A stretch of 49,907 bases of DNA from Thainema sp. (GTDB lineage Bacteria; Cyanobacteriota; Cyanobacteriia; Phormidesmidales; Phormidesmidaceae). The translations under genes were made by a program, and so were the position numbers. Under the pieces are notes generated by a model that saw only the letters and a program-made list of their open reading frames with translations, had not been told where the DNA came from and made no database searches. The DNA lies in NCBI GenBank assembly GCA_052168235.1, contig JBQLZK010000058.1, positions 1 to 49,907 of the forward strand, read 5' to 3'. The stretch's first letter is position 1, and every line of letters begins with the position of its first letter. Shown in pieces: positions 4,802 through 41,204 of this stretch.

Positions 4802-5272
4802 ATGGATGCCACAATAGCAGGTTTAATTGGTGCTGCAATTGGTGCAGTGGCTGGAATGGCTGGAACACTGATTACAACCTATCTATAAGCAAAACAAGAG
4901 CATACAAGATGGATACGTGATAAGCGTGTAGAGGCATATTCAAATACAGTCAGGTATTTAGTCAGGGCACTAAATAAACGATCAAGTCTTGTTATTGAGG
5001 GTGGCACTCTTACAAGTGTGATGGGCAAGGATGTAATAAAGGAATGGTTTGATGATTTGAGCGAAATATTGGTTTGGCTATCGGCTGTGTCTATATACTG
5101 TTCAAAAAGTCAGCAATCGAGAATTGCCCATGCTACTCAGGTAGTTAACAAAGCGGTGTGTGATTTTGTTAATTCTGGTTCAGTAACTTCTGATCTTCAA
5201 AATGTGATTTCATCTGCACTGGGTATTGTAGAAGAATGTGTGCGGCAAGATATAGGCAGAGCAGTTAAGTGA
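4802..5272 (+). pseudogene. Membrane-anchored cassette protein interrupted by a nonsense codon
   Basis: ATG 4802 gives MDATIAGLIGAAIGAVAGMAGTLITTYL, then TAA at 4886-4888. The same frame then stays open into ORF 5018-5272. Confidence 0.7.
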
Positions 5273-5365
5273 GGCGATCTGTGTCTGAACCTCATATCAG
5301 AATCGACCAAATAATCTTAGGATATAATGACCGTAAAGGCTGGTAGCCGTTTGGCTGTATTTGTT

Positions 5366-5590
5366 ATGGCATTGACATCTCGTGTTGTTCATAGCGACCC
5401 TGACATTCTGGGGGGAACTCCGGTTTTTGTTGGAACTCGTGTGCCAATGAGAACCTTACTTGATTATCTTGAGGCTGGGGATTCATTGGAAGTATTTCTA
5501 GACCATTTTCCCAGTGTCAGTCGGGAACAGGCGATCGCAGCCCTTGAATTAGCAAAGGAAATGCTAACAGCCTATGCGAATCCTGCTTGA
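5366..5590 (+). CDS. DUF433 family antitoxin
   Basis: SDPDILGGTPVFVGTRVP...LEVFLDHFPSVSREQ signature. Overlaps the downstream PIN-like gene. ATG 5366 preferred over 5327. Confidence 0.92.
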   Translation: MALTSRVVHSDPDILGGTPVFVGTRVPMRTLLDYLEAGDSLEVFLDHFPSVSREQAIAALELAKEMLTAYANPA

Positions 5591-5900
5591 CGAATGTGCC
5601 CCACGACCTTTGAAGCGTGAACTTACCGATTACGAGATACGCACAGTCGTCGAAATGGGATGGTCAGGGAAAAAGAACGGTGAATTGCTAAAGCTTATGA
5701 GCCAAGAGGGTTTCACGATCCTGCTGACGACCGATCAAAATTTGCGCTATCAGCAAAATCTACAGCAAACTGGAGTAGCAGTCGTCGTCCTTGTAGCACC
5801 CAGCAACAAGCTATCTGACTTACTTCCACTGATACCAGATGCTCGAAACGTTTTGAATACCATTGCTCCAGGAGAAGTGATTGAGGTTGGCGGTTCTTAA
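5574..5900 (+). CDS. DUF5615 family PIN-like toxin (VapC45-like)
   Basis: MRILLDEC...NGELL...LLTTDQNL motifs. Canonical partner of DUF433. Confidence 0.9.
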   Translation: MRILLDECAPRPLKRELTDYEIRTVVEMGWSGKKNGELLKLMSQEGFTILLTTDQNLRYQQNLQQTGVAVVVLVAPSNKLSDLLPLIPDARNVLNTIAPGEVIEVGGS

Positions 5901-6071: not shown

Positions 6072-6353
6072 ATGACACGCTTTAAGGAAAATCTGAAAAC
6101 GTGGTTACGTCTTACCGCAGTAGCGTTTGTAATATTGGTTGTCATTTTCCTGGCGCTGCCATTGCTTTTCCTGCTTCTACGTATACCCTCATTTGAAATT
6201 GGCCAGGGTGTCCTGTGGCTTGTGCGTTGGCAGAATGACTCCAGCGGCAATGGAATTGAGTTTAATTTGGTGCCTTTGTTAATAGTTGCTGCTATTGTTG
6301 GCGTATTAGGTGTACTGGTTAAGCTTCGACGCGATCGCTCCCGGACACCATGA
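6072..6353 (+). CDS. Small protein with two transmembrane helices
   Basis: ATG 6072, two long hydrophobic stretches, follows attC3. Confidence 0.6.
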   Translation: MTRFKENLKTWLRLTAVAFVILVVIFLALPLLFLLLRIPSFEIGQGVLWLVRWQNDSSGNGIEFNLVPLLIVAAIVGVLGVLVKLRRDRSRTP

Positions 6354-6556
6354 CTGAGCAATTGATATTATCCAAACAGCATCCATTAAAGCTCTATTCC
6401 CCTAGTGTAATGATGAATCTTGGTCTCGGTATTGGCTTGGGCGCAGGTATCGGAACTGCCGTAGGTGTAGCAACGGACAACATTGGTATTGGACTTGGCA
6501 TAGGGATTGCGATCGGTATTGCGATCGGACTTCAAGGCGGTAACGGTGGCAGATAG
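6350..6556 (+). CDS. Small glycine-zipper membrane protein
   Basis: GLGIGLGAGIGTAVG...GIGLGIGIAIGIAIG GxxxG repeats. ATGA overlap with the upstream ORF; the start may instead be ATG ~6410. Confidence 0.55.
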   Translation: MTEQLILSKQHPLKLYSPSVMMNLGLGIGLGAGIGTAVGVATDNIGIGLGIGIAIGIAIGLQGGNGGR

Positions 6557-35212: not shown

Positions 35213-35764
35213 TCAGTCTGGAATGGTGACGAGCGGATCAACTGCGATCGCAACTTCGGGAAATGCGACAGGATGAATAACACCATCTTTAACAGTGATC
35301 TGAGTTGAAAAATCACCATTTTGCAAGTCTCTGAACACGGTCAGTTGCCGTCCGGCGATGTCAATCACCCAATATTCCTGGATGCCAGCCTGAGCATAGA
35401 GCTGGCGTTTAGTATTCAAGTCGTAAGTTAGGGTCGTGTCCGCTACCTCAACGAGCCAATAGATCTCGTCTGGATAGGGGTGATGTTTCAAGTAGCGAGT
35501 ATCGGGCAGGCGGACGATGGCGATGTCGGGTTGGGGTTCAGATTTTACCAGCGTGATGGGATGGGCTTCAAACACTTTTGCTTTACTTTGAAGAATACGT
35601 CTAAGGTATTCAGCCCCCCGATCGTTAATGAACCGATGAAATTCTCCTTCTGGAGCCATGTCCCAAATCTCTCCACGAATGAGTTCGCAGCGGCGGCGAT
35701 CCAGAATGCCCAGATCCCGCATACGGTGATAGTCTGCCACTGACCATTTTGTGAGTGTCCGCAT
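35213..35764 (-). CDS. Uma2 family endonuclease
   Basis: WSVADYHRM, SEPQPD, VEVADTTL.YD..K..LYA.AGI.EYWVID. Confidence 0.92.
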   Translation of the reverse strand: MRTLTKWSVADYHRMRDLGILDRRRCELIRGEIWDMAPEGEFHRFINDRGAEYLRRILQSKAKVFEAHPITLVKSEPQPDIAIVRLPDTRYLKHHPYPDEIYWLVEVADTTLTYDLNTKRQLYAQAGIQEYWVIDIAGRQLTVFRDLQNGDFSTQITVKDGVIHPVAFPEVAIAVDPLVTIPD

Positions 35765-36111
35765 GACGTGAACCTGCTGATGTTAGTCTGACATTTGCTC
35801 ATATCCTACTTCAAACGCGATCGCAGCTATGGAGTGGATGAGTTAAGTGCGATCGCGCACAAGGCATGGTCATGAAAAAAATCTGCCACAGAAATGAGGA
35901 AGCTATGGCTCACTCAAAGCACTAAGGAACTTAAGGTAAAGTGCATTTCCGGATTGTATCTGGGCACTCTGTATGAAGAGCTAATAGGCGATTCCTGTCC
36001 TGGCAAAAATTAATAGATGTAAAAGCTGTGCAGCTCAAAACTGCCAGTCTTCAGACTGATGGCTAAACTAGCCTAGAAGCTCATATCTGTAACCCCCAGC
36101 CTCCAGCCCTT

Positions 36112-38310
36112 ATGCAAAGAACTGAGCAAATCAGCTCCATCCTGAATCAGCGTCGGCCTCTAGCCCAACAAATCCAGACTGTAGAGACTAACTTACAGAA
36201 CCTGGCTGCTGTACTCCATCATCTGGATGAACATCGATACAACCTCATCACCAAGTTGGAAGACGCTTCTGCTTGCGGTTCCCTTCGAGAAATTGACTTT
36301 ACCGTTATACAAAAGGAAATTCAGCAGGAAATTCAAGCTCTAGACAAGCTAAAGGTTCGATTTTCTCGCAATACCTTAAACATTGGAGTTGTCGGTAGAG
36401 CAAGGCAAGGGAAAAGCCGATTGCTTCAAAGTCTGACTGGTTTAAGCTCCTCGGAAATTCCAGATGGTGACCGCCAGCATTGTACAGGAGTACGAAGTAC
36501 CATTCATCACAACCCTGATGTCGAACCTTACGGAGATGTCTGGTTCTATACAGAATTTTCCTTTTTAGAGGAAGTGATAGCTCCCTACTATGAAAAGCTA
36601 AGGCTTGGGGCAAAACCTATCAATTTAGAAACCTTTGCGCGGCAATCACTTCCGCCACTCCCCGAGGATCTCAAAGGTCGAGCTGTAGAAGGGGCAATGT
36701 ATGAGCATCTGAAAAAATATCACACAAATTTTGACAAATATAGCTCCTTACTCAAACAACCCTCTCCACAAAGAATTACTCAAGAGCAAATCAGAGAATA
36801 TGTAGCCCAAGACACAAACGATGGACAACGCACTTACTTTAACTACTTAGCCGTTCGGGAAGTCAAAATCACCTGTAGCTTTCCCAATCAGGATGTTGGA
36901 CAAATTGCTCTTGTAGACATGCCTGGTTTAGGGGATACAGGTATTGGAGATACTGAACGATTGGTAAAAACCCTTGGACAAGATGTTGATGTCGTTTTGT
37001 TTGTCCGCATGCCCAAACCATCGGGAGACTACTGGGCAGATTACGACGTCAATCTTTACGATACGGCCCAAGGTGCTTTGCTTGATTTACCGATTAACTT
37101 ATGGTCTTTTCTGGTGTTGAACCGCACTGCAATGGGTTCAAAATATGGCGATAACTGGCAAAACTGCTTAGAGTTAAAGGAAAGCCTGAAAGAAAAACAC
37201 ATCGATGTTGCAGGACAGCTCATCACCAATTGCTCTGATATTCAAGAGACAGGATCGCTACTTGATCTGATTCTCAACTATATGGCTAATGAAATTCATA
37301 CGTTGGATCGTAAGTACGCTTCTGCATGCCAGAATCGACTGCTTGATCTTCATCGTTCGGTTGAGATTGAGTTAGCTGAAGCTCGAACCGCTCTAGGCGA
37401 AGTAGGTTATGGCGAAGATTGGTTCCCTTTATTCTTGCAACTTTTCGAAAAACTTTGGGATGAATTAGCTTCAGGACTAGATGATCTGCTCGATGAGCTT
37501 AGGGAGCAAAAAGATTTTCCAGATATGGACTTCAAGCAGAAAGTAGATGAAGCCCTTAATGCTGGTAAGCAAGATACAGGTCTTCCATCAATAGAAGAGA
37601 TTGATACTAAGGCCAAAGCATTAGGAGGCTATCCAAATGCTTACTATGCCTATATGAATGAAGTTCGTGCTCATTTATCCCAACATTTTCTACTTGTCGA
37701 TGAAGCCCTGAAGCGTGGCCTAGAGCGAGTCAAGTCTCAGGTTGCAGAGGTTTTAGCACATCAAGGGAAATTGAGTAACCTCTCCGAAGAAGATGGAAGT
37801 AGCTTTTTAGAGGCTATCTCTGAACAAATTCCACAGCAACTTGTTCCCAATCAGCCTAGCAGGCTGAAAAATGGGTTTCAGATTCTTTCAGACTTCACAC
37901 TATCTTACCGAGGTTTAATCCAACACCGCATTCGTCAACATTTGGATGATCTGACACCTAACACAACAGAACTTCAGCTTTCACCATCTCCTACGGCTGA
38001 GGAAGTTGAAAGCTGTCTTAGAACTCTTCATTCAGAGGCATTGTATAAGTGCCGTACTGCTTTAGATGACTTACTTGCTGAACCCAGTCAGGCGGCATTT
38101 GCAATCGTAGAAGAATTTTGCGATCGCGTACTCCGTGCTGAAGGAGTAAAGATGGAATGGCAGATCTTTCTACAATCTGTCAGATCTGAAGTCTGGAGTG
38201 ATCATTTCCGGGCTTTGGATGAGAAGACGCGAACTCGAACAGAATGGCTCGATACCATTCAACAAGTTTCAGAAATAAACAAGTTTGAAAATTTACGTTT
38301 TTTGAATTAA
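36112..38310 (+). CDS. Dynamin-like large GTPase
   Basis: N-terminal coiled coil, G1 GRARQGKS, G2 CT, G3 DMPG, G4-like LNRT, long helical C-terminal region. Confidence 0.82.
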   Translation: MQRTEQISSILNQRRPLAQQIQTVETNLQNLAAVLHHLDEHRYNLITKLEDASACGSLREIDFTVIQKEIQQEIQALDKLKVRFSRNTLNIGVVGRARQGKSRLLQSLTGLSSSEIPDGDRQHCTGVRSTIHHNPDVEPYGDVWFYTEFSFLEEVIAPYYEKLRLGAKPINLETFARQSLPPLPEDLKGRAVEGAMYEHLKKYHTNFDKYSSLLKQPSPQRITQEQIREYVAQDTNDGQRTYFNYLAVREVKITCSFPNQDVGQIALVDMPGLGDTGIGDTERLVKTLGQDVDVVLFVRMPKPSGDYWADYDVNLYDTAQGALLDLPINLWSFLVLNRTAMGSKYGDNWQNCLELKESLKEKHIDVAGQLITNCSDIQETGSLLDLILNYMANEIHTLDRKYASACQNRLLDLHRSVEIELAEARTALGEVGYGEDWFPLFLQLFEKLWDELASGLDDLLDELREQKDFPDMDFKQKVDEALNAGKQDTGLPSIEEIDTKAKALGGYPNAYYAYMNEVRAHLSQHFLLVDEALKRGLERVKSQVAEVLAHQGKLSNLSEEDGSSFLEAISEQIPQQLVPNQPSRLKNGFQILSDFTLSYRGLIQHRIRQHLDDLTPNTTELQLSPSPTAEEVESCLRTLHSEALYKCRTALDDLLAEPSQAAFAIVEEFCDRVLRAEGVKMEWQIFLQSVRSEVWSDHFRALDEKTRTRTEWLDTIQQVSEINKFENLRFLN

Positions 38311-38328
38311 GGCTGTGGGGAACATCTA

Positions 38329-39312
38329 ATGCATGAACTTCAAATCACTATGCTTGGGCCAAGTGGTGTTGGTAAAACCACTCTTTTAACTGCTATGTAT
38401 GAGCAATTCGAGAGTAATATTGGCAGCGTTGATTTACAACTCACTCCTGATGAGGACAGTTCAGCAATTTTACAAGATACATTAATCGACTTAAAAAGCC
38501 TTCTGGACTCGTTTGAAGTTAAAGGTGGAGTTCTAAGTACTGAAGCTCCTGCAGGACCAGATTCTTTAAGATCATTTACCTTTGGTCTTGGGAAAAAAGG
38601 AAAAAAGCCATCTTTAACCTTAACATTTAGAGACTATCCAGGAATTTATCACACTAAAATGGCAACAACGGATGAAAAAAGGTTTTTGAGGGACTTGATT
38701 GTTGACTCTCATGTGATATTGATTGCAATAGACACACCATCACTCATGGAACAGAATGGGAAATATCATGAAAAAATAAATAGACCACAGCAAATCAAAG
38801 ATTTATTTAAAAATGCTTATTCAAAGAGCGATGACAATGAACCTAAAATGGTTATTTTTGCGCCTGTTAAATGCGAAAAATATCTAAAGAAGAACCTCAA
38901 CGCTGAGCTTGAAGACGCCGTCAAGAAAGGTTATCAAGACCTATTTGAATACTTTAGATCTGATGGTTTATCGAATTGGACAAGCTGCGTCTTAACTCCT
39001 GTTCAAACTGTAGGCAATGTTGTTCTTTCACGAATAGAACCTGATGAAAATGGTGTACTACATTTTTCTTTCCGAAAAACTCGCTACGATGCAACATACG
39101 ATCCAAAAGATAGTGAGCAACCACTAAGATATTTGCTTCGGTTTCTTCTTAAAATACATCTTGACTCTAGAAAGTGGAGTAAATTTAATTTTGTTAGAGA
39201 TTGGCTAAAAATGGATAGGCATCTTGAAAAAGCAGTTGATGAATTTTCAAGAGGATGTAAAACAGGTGATGGTTTTACCATACTTCAAGGTGAAAGCTGG
39301 TTGAAAATTTAG
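38329..39312 (+). CDS. TRAFAC-class P-loop GTPase
   Basis: G1 GPSGVGKT, G3 DYPG, IAIDTP, G4-like VKCE. Starts 18 nt after the dynamin-like gene. Confidence 0.82.
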   Translation: MHELQITMLGPSGVGKTTLLTAMYEQFESNIGSVDLQLTPDEDSSAILQDTLIDLKSLLDSFEVKGGVLSTEAPAGPDSLRSFTFGLGKKGKKPSLTLTFRDYPGIYHTKMATTDEKRFLRDLIVDSHVILIAIDTPSLMEQNGKYHEKINRPQQIKDLFKNAYSKSDDNEPKMVIFAPVKCEKYLKKNLNAELEDAVKKGYQDLFEYFRSDGLSNWTSCVLTPVQTVGNVVLSRIEPDENGVLHFSFRKTRYDATYDPKDSEQPLRYLLRFLLKIHLDSRKWSKFNFVRDWLKMDRHLEKAVDEFSRGCKTGDGFTILQGESWLKI

Positions 39313-39322
39313 TTAATAAGGA

Positions 39323-40240
39323 TTGGCACAAATGTCTTCTATTACTAATATTCATGTTCAATCCAGAGGGTATCAGCAAGAAAATGATTATCGGTGGGTA
39401 AAAGTAAATCAACAAGGCGATCCTAGATTTGAAATGCCTTTTTTTATAGATTCTCATAACAATCTTAATTTATTAGACTTTATTGAAACTCAGCGTCCTT
39501 CAGTAATTCTTGCTCATCAAGGAAACTATTTCTTTCTCCTAGTTACAGCGTTGGAAGCTGATTCTACCAGACTAGATTGGGCTAATCGTCCAATAAGAAA
39601 CTCGATTGCATGGACATTTGAACAAGATGAGGAGGGAGTAAATGAGAAAAAAATTAGGGCAATTACAATTTTGGCTTTACAGAACAAGCTGAGTACAAAA
39701 ATACATCAAATGATTTTGAATGATGATAGTAAAGACTACGGATTTCGAGTGAATTTTTCTTCTTTAAATACTATTGGCAATTCCTATAGAGAACTAAAAG
39801 ACTTAGATCCGAATCTAAAAAGATGGATCAGCGGAGACTCTGAGGATACTCGGCAGAAACTATGTGATGAGCTTAGGACTAGCAGGTTACCGCAGCAAAA
39901 CGGCTTGCTAATTTTGGTTACCACTCTTAAAAATAAAGATTTTTTGCGTCAAGTTCCAGTATGGAGAGGAATATCTTGTCGATCAGATGAAGACATAGAG
40001 TGGTTAGAGAATAACGAACCTGAACAAGTAGCTTTCTCTCAAAAAAAAACAGAATTCTCGAAAAAAGGAATCTTTCTCGCTTTACTCCTTATCCTGTTAC
40101 TGAGCATCATACTTCTGACAGGATTATATCTAAAACCAATTCTCCTGAGACCGATCGAGGAGATACCAAATCAACAGGAAGATACAACACAAATCCAAGT
40201 GGAAGAAATCAAGACAATGGAACAGATCAATCCTCTTTAA
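39323..40240 (+). CDS. GTPase-associated protein with a C-terminal transmembrane anchor (0-frame product)
   Basis: Tightly linked third gene (TTG 39323 or ATG 39332). KK is followed by GIFLALLLILLLSIILLTGLYL. Confidence 0.75.
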   Translation: MAQMSSITNIHVQSRGYQQENDYRWVKVNQQGDPRFEMPFFIDSHNNLNLLDFIETQRPSVILAHQGNYFFLLVTALEADSTRLDWANRPIRNSIAWTFEQDEEGVNEKKIRAITILALQNKLSTKIHQMILNDDSKDYGFRVNFSSLNTIGNSYRELKDLDPNLKRWISGDSEDTRQKLCDELRTSRLPQQNGLLILVTTLKNKDFLRQVPVWRGISCRSDEDIEWLENNEPEQVAFSQKKTEFSKKGIFLALLLILLLSIILLTGLYLKPILLRPIEEIPNQQEDTTQIQVEEIKTMEQINPL

Positions 40241-40416
40241 TTGGTCAAATAAAAGATAGGATGTTATCTACTCCTGGTGCTTTGAGAGAATTCTACCCGT
40301 TGGCACAGGAAATAGTTGGACGAGCTTTAGGCGAGGTATCTAATAAGATAGAAGTAGATCCAGATTTTGAGCGCAGATTTCGAGAATTCTTGGATTTTAT
40401 AAATGAGAATCTTTAG
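40041..40416 (+). other. A9 slippery tract and overlapping -1 reading frame (alternative C-terminus)
   Basis: Nine As at 40041-40049, phased A_AAA_AAA. The -1 frame is open from 40024 (after TGA 40021) to TAG 40414-40416, with no ATG until 40261. Confidence 0.65.
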
Positions 40417-40568
40417 ACTAATTCGTAGTTAGTATAGCCACATCTCAAAACTAGGCAACGATACCGCTATTCTGCCACGCGCTTCCCTTGAGAGTTTCCG
40501 AAAGGATAGCTTTCCTCTGTCGTTCAAAATGAGATCGCAACTGAGACTGACATGCAGAGAGAATGTGA

Positions 40569-41204
40569 TCATTGCTCTAAAACCTTTTGCCCCACCACCT
40601 TGAGAATCTGAGCCACTTGCCCCAGTTCATGCCGCTGCGGAAATAGCGAAAACGAACGAGACGTATCGTATTCCCGTTCAGCACTCAGTTTCAGAAAGAC
40701 AAACTCATCCCCATTTGTCGCCATGCCATAGTTAGGATGCTGTCGGTTAGGATTGGCTGCCATATACGCCAGCAGTTGCGGCAACGCCGCCGGAACCGAA
40801 ATGCTGGTTCGCTTAGACTCAACCGTCAAAATCCAAAGATGCTCTTGCACCACCAATACATCAATGAATCCCCGGATCGTTTCCTCCGGGTCTTGCAGTT
40901 CTACAGCAACTCCATGAGGCGACTTGATGCGAAAAGGAGGATCAACAAAACCCAAAAGCTCCAGCAGCGGAGCAGTCATTACCAGATTAATTGCGGTGCC
41001 CTCTAGCAGCAACCCATCAGCACGGTGATAATCGTAACGCTGTTTGATGCGTTCAACACTCGCTGCTTCCTGAGCCGTCAAAGACGGTAGATCACCCGTC
41101 CATTCAGAGAAGAACTCAGGATTACGAGATTGCACAAGTCCCAAGCGCTGGTGCAAATCATTTAGTGTGGTGATTACATCTCTAACGCCAGCGCTGCCTA
41201 CCAT
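40569..41204 (-). CDS. Restriction-endonuclease-like protein (type I HsdR N-terminal-like PD-(D/E)xK family)
   Basis: GFIDVLVV...VESKR...QLLAYM...GMATNGDEFVF. Confidence 0.82.
   Translation of the reverse strand: MVGSAGVRDVITTLNDLHQRLGLVQSRNPEFFSEWTGDLPSLTAQEAASVERIKQRYDYHRADGLLLEGTAINLVMTAPLLELLGFVDPPFRIKSPHGVAVELQDPEETIRGFIDVLVVQEHLWILTVESKRTSISVPAALPQLLAYMAANPNRQHPNYGMATNGDEFVFLKLSAEREYDTSRSFSLFPQRHELGQVAQILKVVGQKVLEQ

Follow-up and report, generated by a model that had tools for sequence, protein, structure and literature searches.

The systems closest to the one described here are cases in which a run of adenines lets one gene yield more than one protein, a mechanism of a known kind exemplified by dnaX, spa13 and insertion sequence (IS) elements. 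Our subject is gene 3, the last gene of a three-gene GTPase cassette in a 49,907-base stretch of DNA from the cyanobacterium Thainema sp. (assembly GCA_052168235.1, contig JBQLZK010000058.1, positions 1 to 49,907; the whole stretch is called the window). Runs of 9 A or T slip efficiently in vivo (PMC5009743), and many genomes select against A/T runs of that length (PMC5009743, PMC1088944). When 108 genomes were surveyed, a 9A overlap proved to be conserved in six IS groups and in only one non-mobile candidate; the authors, Baranov et al., considered a site probably functional if non-identical homologues keep both the 9A run and the layout of overlapping open reading frames (ORFs) (PMC1088944).

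Gene 3 shares features with several of these systems. Like dnaX of Thermus thermophilus (tau/gamma), it has a run of 9 A/T within the coding sequence, an arrangement that in dnaX gives mixed mRNAs and two proteins sharing their N-terminal part (PMC5009743, PMC3711429). It resembles Shigella spa13, in which slippage adds a C-terminal extension of 112 amino acids (aa) in 25-30% of the product (PMC5009743), and the OrfA-OrfB arrangement of IS elements, in which conserved 9A runs lie in the ORF overlap of six IS groups (PMC1088944). It also resembles Escherichia coli copA, where recoding gives a soluble and a membrane product from one gene (PMC5009743), and E. coli dnaX and other -1 frameshift cassettes, which use A_AAA_AAG or A_AAA_AAA. 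A different likeness is to the DO-GTPase/GAP1 systems (Kaur, Burroughs, Iyer, Aravind 2020, PMC7159879): gene 2 of the cassette passes the Pfam cut-off for DO-GTPase2 and has a partner gene directly downstream, and those systems typically show membrane association and variable modules.

Results

An A9 run precedes an open -1 frame in gene 3

Gene 3 probably makes a membrane-anchored and a soluble protein by a -1 shift at its A run, as judged from the comparison of sequences described below. The features on which this reading depends are as follows.

39332..40240, forward strand: gene 3 in the 0 frame, 302 aa, with an alpha/beta N-domain, a K-rich site, a C-terminal membrane helix and a short tail (translation, homologues, AlphaFold2 (AF2) model).
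40021..40023, forward strand: last -1 stop (TGA) before the run, the 5' limit for a productive shift (frame scan).
40041..40049, forward strand: A9 run, the proposed slip site, phased CAA AAA AAA ACA and encoding Q237 K238 K239 T240.
40048..40416, forward strand: -1 extension of 122 codons plus TAG (translation, frame scan).
40061..40129, forward strand: 0-frame membrane helix, residues 244-266 (AF2 helix); the -1 frame encodes a polar, stop-free linker.
40099..40101, forward strand: first +1-frame stop after the run (frame scan).
40228..40413, forward strand: conserved three-helix C-terminal domain in the -1 frame (alignment, helices, -1-frame third-position substitutions).

Translation of gene 3 could begin at ATG 39332 or at TTG 39323 (305 aa) and ends at TAA 40238-40; we assigned the start to the ATG because the homologues begin there (MSS.TNIH). 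The A9 run is the only A run of at least 8 in the 49,907 bases, which also hold one T8 elsewhere, and it contains an in-phase A_AAA_AAA heptamer at 40042-40048. From TGA 40021-23 the -1 frame is open to TAG 40414-16, overlapping the 0 frame by about 66 codons and running 176 nucleotides (nt) beyond the TAA. Before the run, this frame has 28 stops in 236 codons; after it, there are 0 in 124 codons. At other places in the three cassette genes of the window, stop-free stretches of the -1 frame reach at most 24-36 codons. The initial annotation, which had proposed -1 frameshifting or slippage at this site giving anchored and soluble isoforms, was correct in the position and phase of the A9 run, the -1 stop at 40021, the TAG end and the +1 closure at 40101, and its -1 translation matches ours letter for letter. 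Its two-product layout is also supported, while the lengths it gave (305 and about 364 aa) become, with the ATG start, 302 aa for the unshifted and 239 + 122 = 361 aa for the shifted product.

We compared the open frame with a fixed-protein null, in which the amino acids are kept and synonymous codons are redrawn from cassette usage. This null predicts 3.6 stops in the 63 overlap codons of the window, and the probability of no -1 stop is 0.0086. The -1 stretch ranks 4th of 52 alternative-frame stretches spanning the stops of the window's 26 ORFs of at least 150 aa; two of the three ranking higher are the next gene, and one (133 codons, in GC-richer DNA) is comparable. A -1 codon takes its third base from position 2 of the 0-frame codon, which is T in codons for Leu, Ile, Val and Phe. 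Part of the -1 openness is automatic, because a helix segment built of these residues cannot yield -1 stops, and therefore any constraint acts on the flanks of the helix. For the window alone, the dual-frame signal is modest (P about 0.009) and suggestive; it is the homologues, compared at the sequence level, that make it significant.

The run and the open frame are conserved among homologues

We found 13 homologues of gene 3 among Leptolyngbya-, Nodosilinea- and Limnothrix-like cyanobacteria, and a sister branch contributes 83 proteins from Nostocales, Snowella, Planktothrix and Synechocystis. The family set comprised 97 proteins, and DNA was compared for five independent members: the window and loci L001, L002, L003 and L005. 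Genome contigs were scanned with an alignment of the 7 closest sequences. A further candidate from this work, L004, encodes a 1208-aa protease-like ORF sharing only a short word with gene 3 and was dropped before all counts. Among plasmids, tblastn with the window protein (P0001) gave no match, and tblastn with the subgroup relative P0013 and with the L005 protein matched only a Nostoc and Aulosira pair, so that plasmids add one independent locus. The plasmid copy from Aulosira laxa (L006) has 4 differences from L005 in 1472 bases and was left out of the independent counts as near-identical. For each independent locus we list its source, the run and slip-site codons, the -1 stops before the run, the distance from the last of these to the run, the open -1 codons after the run, the +1 stops in the overlap, and the fixed-protein probability of no -1 stop in the overlap.

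Window: A9, CAA AAA AAA ACN; 28 stops in 236 codons; 20 nt; 124 open codons; 4 +1 stops; P = 0.0086.
L001 (genome contigs, 75% identity to P0001): A9, CAA AAA AAA ACN; 32 stops in 236 codons; 26 nt; 125 open codons; 8 +1 stops; P = 0.071.
L002 (genome contigs, 50% identity to P0001): A9, CAA AAA AAA ACN; 30 stops in 236 codons; 29 nt; 128 open codons; 6 +1 stops; P = 0.115.
L003 (genome contigs, 45% identity to P0001): A10, CAA AAA AAA AAG; 30 stops in 243 codons; 20 nt; 122 open codons; 6 +1 stops; P = 0.036.
L005 (Nostoc carneum plasmid, 28% identity to P0013): A10, GAA AAA AAA AAG; 35 stops in 253 codons; 23 nt; 236 open codons; 8 +1 stops; P = 0.12.

In all five loci the run begins at codon position 2 of a Q or E codon just before the membrane helix, and, the T8 of the window excepted, this A9 or A10 at the Q/E-K-K site is the only A/T run of at least 8 in the locus. 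In L003 and L005 the A10 is accompanied by one entire additional codon, which preserves the phase. The downstream domain lies in the -1 phase relative to gene 3 in every locus, and across loci the -1 frame of the cassette genes is otherwise open for no more than 24-59 codons at a time. The product of the five null probabilities is 3e-7, or 4e-5 without the window, which is a close relative of L001 (81 of 236 third positions differ between the two). Given the codon usage of the locus concerned, all the Q/E-K-K codons would end in A with a probability of 0.33, 0.30, 0.21, 0.20 and 0.49, in the order of the list above. At the protein level, 78 of the 97 family members carry [QEK]KK+[TKNMIRS] after residue 150, the footprint of a run of at least 9 A's. 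The homologue check suggested by the initial annotation thus gave a tract and dual frame kept in five of five independent loci.

Three side observations concern these relatives. A subgroup whose named members are Snowella (P0073, P0077, P0078, P0080, P0081, P0083 and P0086) has G-K-K-Y before the helix, a motif that allows at most about seven A's, so that recoding there, if any, would be ribosomal. The L001 contig (PXAW01000204.1) is titled as a Hyphomicrobiales metagenome-assembled genome, and all named relatives of its cassette are cyanobacterial; the contig was either mis-binned or transferred. Finally, a second A-rich site lies 10-11 nt past the run, as an in-phase A_AAA_AAG in L001 (4485-4491) and as G_AAA_AAA in the window (40060-40066); a second slippery site was rejected as a conserved element, being absent in L002 and L003.

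Both frames evolve as coding sequence

Substitutions in the overlap follow the 0 frame (15, 6 and 21 at codon positions 1, 2 and 3 between the window and L001), and those in the tail domain follow the -1 frame (13/14/27, 19/15/27 and 15/19/30). This comparison shows coding-type selection in both putative reading frames. In 92 of the 97 family proteins a strongly hydrophobic 19-residue window follows the K's (the best such window of gene 3 scores 3.09, from residue 247), and close homologues of gene 3 share the 0-frame tail motif P.QQE.T.QIQ. Because the helix is so widely kept and the tail motif is shared, the predicted membrane-anchored 0-frame form is real.

The AF2 model of gene 3 (mean predicted local distance difference test (pLDDT) 77.9, predicted template modelling score (pTM) 0.72) places residues 1-228 in an alpha/beta domain and residues 244-266 in a helix, with a hinge of low confidence at the K site. 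For the -1 part, residues 1-62 are modelled at pLDDT <50 and are followed by helices 64-76, 80-103 and 108-124 at pLDDT 70-83, in agreement with the polar linker and helical domain that the initial annotation had read from the translation. The three-helix domain begins upstream of both ATG 40261 and the 0-frame stop; ATG 40261 is residue 75 of the modelled -1 part and is thus preceded by helix 1 and the conserved L-x-x-[QE]-[IV]-K residues. The 51-aa tail part has 2 relatives among 1.84 billion representatives, and the Nostoc tail domain, which is about 150 aa and unrelated to the three-helix domain, is found in 2 clusters. Because the tail domains are near-orphans, the tail module appears, from these searches, to have been replaced between lineages.

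These patterns bear on whether the open frame could be an artefact, either a homopolymer assembly error in one long ORF or a decaying gene with a chance-open -1 frame. Homopolymers are error-prone, and the 133-codon alternative-frame stretch noted above shows that one other stretch of similar length occurs in the window. However, six assemblies agree on the phase and keep the helix in frame, the extra A of L003 and L005 belongs to a whole extra codon, the 0-frame helix and tail motif are conserved with 0-frame substitutions in the overlap, and the -1 domain has coding-type substitutions. An artefact is thus highly improbable. Together with the homologue comparison, this sustains, within what sequences can tell, the initial proposal of anchored and soluble isoforms arising through the slip site.

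Points against recoding, and a separate tail gene

Several observations weigh against a -1 shift as the source of a second product. When synonymous codons were shuffled only inside the overlap, a stricter test than the fixed-protein null, the probability of no -1 stop was 0.20 for the window and 0.18, 0.32 and 0.15 for L001-L003. The layout comparison covers five independent members of the 97-protein family, the tail-domain model rests on 4 sequences, and the near-orphan tail domains have 2 relatives apiece. Family proteins of up to 574 aa include no natural in-frame fusion of the N-domain and tail. Searches for a stimulator of ribosomal frameshifting gave nothing: downstream folds were not conserved (z of -1.06, -1.17, -0.26 and -3.04, with structures at different positions), the RNAalifold consensus had 0 pairs (with the L005 row poorly aligned), Rfam gave 0 matches at E up to 1, and by eye no Shine-Dalgarno (SD)-like motif was seen upstream of the run. 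Finally, a possible start codon lies 0-45 nt from the 0-frame stop in every locus.

This last point is the basis for a second explanation, that a small gene in its own right encodes the tail (about 51-63 aa, but 152 aa in Nostoc) and is translated through coupling or re-initiation once gene 3 has ended, which would make the open overlap and the run incidental. The candidate starts are ATG 40261 in the window (21 nt after the stop), TTG 4665 in L001, TTG 5957 in L002, ATG 5912 in L003 (an ATGA overlap with the stop) and TTG 5861 in L005. Gene callers list the L001 and L002 tails as 59- and 46-aa proteins, and the Nostoc tail ORF is annotated as a separate coding sequence. However, the candidate starts fall in different alignment columns, and the only canonical one of L002 (TTG 5957) truncates the conserved domain. 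No canonical -1 start is found between the upstream stop and 40261 in the window, 4665 in L001 or 5957 in L002; the -1 frame of L003 has, besides the ATG overlapping the stop, an unconserved TTG near the run. An AGGA-type ribosome-binding motif lies 6-8 nt before the gene 3 ATG in all five loci, whereas an SD-like motif at a usable distance precedes the candidate tail start in two of five, although SD motifs are often missing from cyanobacterial genes here (genes 1 and 2 are without one). A separate gene would also leave unexplained the lack of any -1 stop in all five overlaps (joint P of 3e-7 to 4e-5), the constant -1 phase in all five loci, the conserved run of at least 9 A's with a -1 stop just before it, and the conserved residues and predicted helix 1 upstream of the start. 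We consider a separate gene improbable as the full explanation; independent translation of 40261-40416 may be an additional route.

The Nostoc and Aulosira tails are annotated as separate 152-aa hypothetical proteins, BAY35527.1 (L005 5861-6319) and BAZ78061.1 (L006 2514-2972). Both are in the -1 frame of the upstream gene and are stop-free back to the A10, and on this sequence context they are probably tails of the trans-frame product.

Proposed recoding and its mechanism

Under the recoding reading, cassette gene 3 would yield two proteins from one start codon. Standard decoding would give the 302-aa protein, whose cytoplasmic alpha/beta domain is tethered to the membrane through one C-terminal helix. 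Part of the expression would pass into the -1 frame at the A9 (Q-K-K-T), either because RNA polymerase adds one A to give an A10 mRNA or because the ribosome slips back one base on A_AAA_AAA. The 361-aa shifted form would retain the N-domain and swap the anchor and tail for a linker of about 60 disordered polar residues, overprinted on the helix-coding bases, and a three-helix domain of about 60 residues. A8 mRNAs, also expected from polymerase slippage, would give short truncated products ending at the +1 stops. The shifting itself, its efficiency, its mechanism and the roles of both forms are inferred.

The features of the site suggest which route might be used. All five loci have the A_AAA_AAA heptamer in phase, and A_AAA_AAG occurs in addition in L003 and L005; of the features of a ribosomal frameshift cassette, the in-phase heptamer is therefore present, whereas a stimulator (stem-loop, pseudoknot or SD-like motif) was not found. 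The comparative features that Baranov et al. 2005 looked for are present: a run of at least 9 A's in a coding gene, a longer predicted product of slippage and conservation in five of five non-identical loci. We lean towards both mechanisms contributing, with polymerase slippage favoured on the basis of tract length, because all five loci keep at least 9 A's and a ribosomal site needs only 7.

Poly-A tracts this long are slippery for DNA polymerase too (PMC3711429), which raises the possibility of a phase-variation switch in which replication slippage turns A9 into A10 in a subpopulation and cells inherit one form. Two family members could reflect such events: P0024 ends in a +1-frame reading (14 of 25 residues identical to the L005 +1 frame, E 3e-8), and P0016 stops two residues after the K's, so that tract-length variants or homopolymer errors affect 1-2 of the 97 protein clusters. 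However, each of the six loci with DNA reads in the phase that gives the anchor, the helix is in frame in 92 of 97 predicted proteins, and no -1-phase fused variant occurs among proteins of up to 574 aa. The sole confirmed off-phase variant, P0024, leads into the unproductive +1 frame, and both Nostocales plasmid copies, with their 4 differences in 1472 bases, have A10. There is accordingly only a small chance that a heritable DNA switch, instead of recoding during expression, accounts for the layout.

The cassette and its surroundings

Gene 3 follows two GTPase genes.

36112..38310, forward strand: gene 1, dynamin-like GTPase, 732 aa (Pfam Dynamin_N, E 2.9e-6, 27.8 bits, cut-off 27).
38329..39312, forward strand: gene 2, P-loop GTPase resembling DO-GTPase2, 327 aa (Pfam PF19993, E 2.5e-7, 31.1 bits, cut-off 27).

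The gene order is the same in all loci: a dynamin-like ORF of 732-760 aa, which occupies the same position in L001, L002, L003 and L005, a DO-GTPase2-like gene (35.9 bits against the DO-GTPase2 model in L005) and gene 3. Gene 2 is much better conserved between loci than gene 3, with identities to L001, L002 and L003 of 88, 80 and 78% as against 75, 50 and 45%. The GC content of the cassette (window 36000-40450) is 35-44%, declining from gene 1 to gene 3, and that of the flanks is 52-56%. The island lies between a Uma2-family endonuclease gene (35213..35764, reverse strand) and an HSDR_N-like gene (40569..41204, reverse strand). A low-GC island between such genes suggests that the three-gene cassette was acquired horizontally. 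In L001 the cassette is followed by a gene for a trypsin-like peptidase with zinc ribbons (5035-5886; Trypsin_2, E 2.4e-25); L002 has only a 21-codon remnant of the start of this gene (6296-6361), and none was seen directly after the cassette in the window. A terminator scan of 39800-40800 found none.

Gene 3 had no match in Pfam (0 families at E up to 1), NCBIfam or PADLOC, and the tail ORF had no family match in the same three collections; an Atlas search with the tail domain gave no usable match. Foldseek with the gene 3 model against PDB gave 0 matches at E up to 0.001. Its weak top matches, with TM-scores of about 0.2 and of use as a lead only, were longin/roadblock-type GTPase regulators (GATOR1 subunits, TagF, FLCN-FNIP and Lst4), and a PDB profile search matched the helix region alone (FliL, E 0.028).

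Discussion

No description of this case was found in literature searches, as judged by titles and abstract openings. As far as these searches show, novelty lies in the gene family, in the exchange of an anchor for a domain and in how deeply the layout is conserved. Few ordinary bacterial genes have conserved recoding, and with its membrane anchor exchanged for a soluble domain, one protein would be expected at two locations. For annotation, "hypothetical" small ORFs after these genes are probably trans-frame tails. For experiment, the tract would be a simple genetic handle on an uncharacterised GTPase cassette, since it can be locked in either frame.

A broader reading, which we regard as rather unlikely, is that the slip site is an ancient family-wide device in a cyanobacterial GTPase conflict cassette, in which a constant GTPase-binding domain is made both in an anchored form and in a soluble form with a lineage-specific, rapidly replaced tail. 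The linker would cost next to nothing, since a Leu/Ile-rich helix read in the -1 frame cannot yield stops. In that case the A run could act as a gauge, and the balance between the two forms could respond to stress on transcription or translation, such as that of phage infection. If the ratio does shift with stress, recoding would be part of the system's sensing or firing.

The DO-GTPase/GAP1 systems differ in that the second GTPase of our cassette is dynamin-like and not a DO-GTPase paralogue. Gene 3 had no GAP1 match in Pfam, and GAP1 was absent from the 25 listed of 85 matched families (62 members); weak Atlas leads connect it to GAP1-N clusters (0.77-0.82, below 0.9). The words "frameshift" and "dynamin" have 0 occurrences each in the text of PMC7159879. 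The cassette did not pass as a bacterial dynamin-like defence pair (Eleos, LeoA/LeoBC) in PADLOC, where only gene 1 matched LeoBC (E 0.006, 13.7 bits, about 100 residues).

The known recoding systems differ from gene 3 in what the shift does. In Thermus dnaX the shifted frames stop at once and the extra product is truncated, whereas the -1 frame of gene 3 adds about 122 residues with a predicted folded domain, so that the unshifted product is the shorter one, and the family is unrelated. In contrast to E. coli dnaX, the gene 3 loci have no detected SD-like or stem-loop stimulator, and their tracts are longer than a ribosomal site requires. In E. coli copA the shift occurs early and the product is a truncated protein of 70 aa (PMC5009743), while the proposed shift in gene 3 is late and adds a domain, at another slip site and in another family. 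Unlike spa13 and the IS elements, gene 3 is neither a secretion gene nor a mobile element, and its extension would replace a membrane anchor, in a layout that is conserved in cyanobacterial relatives down to about 28% identity or less, as in the Nostoc plasmid copy.

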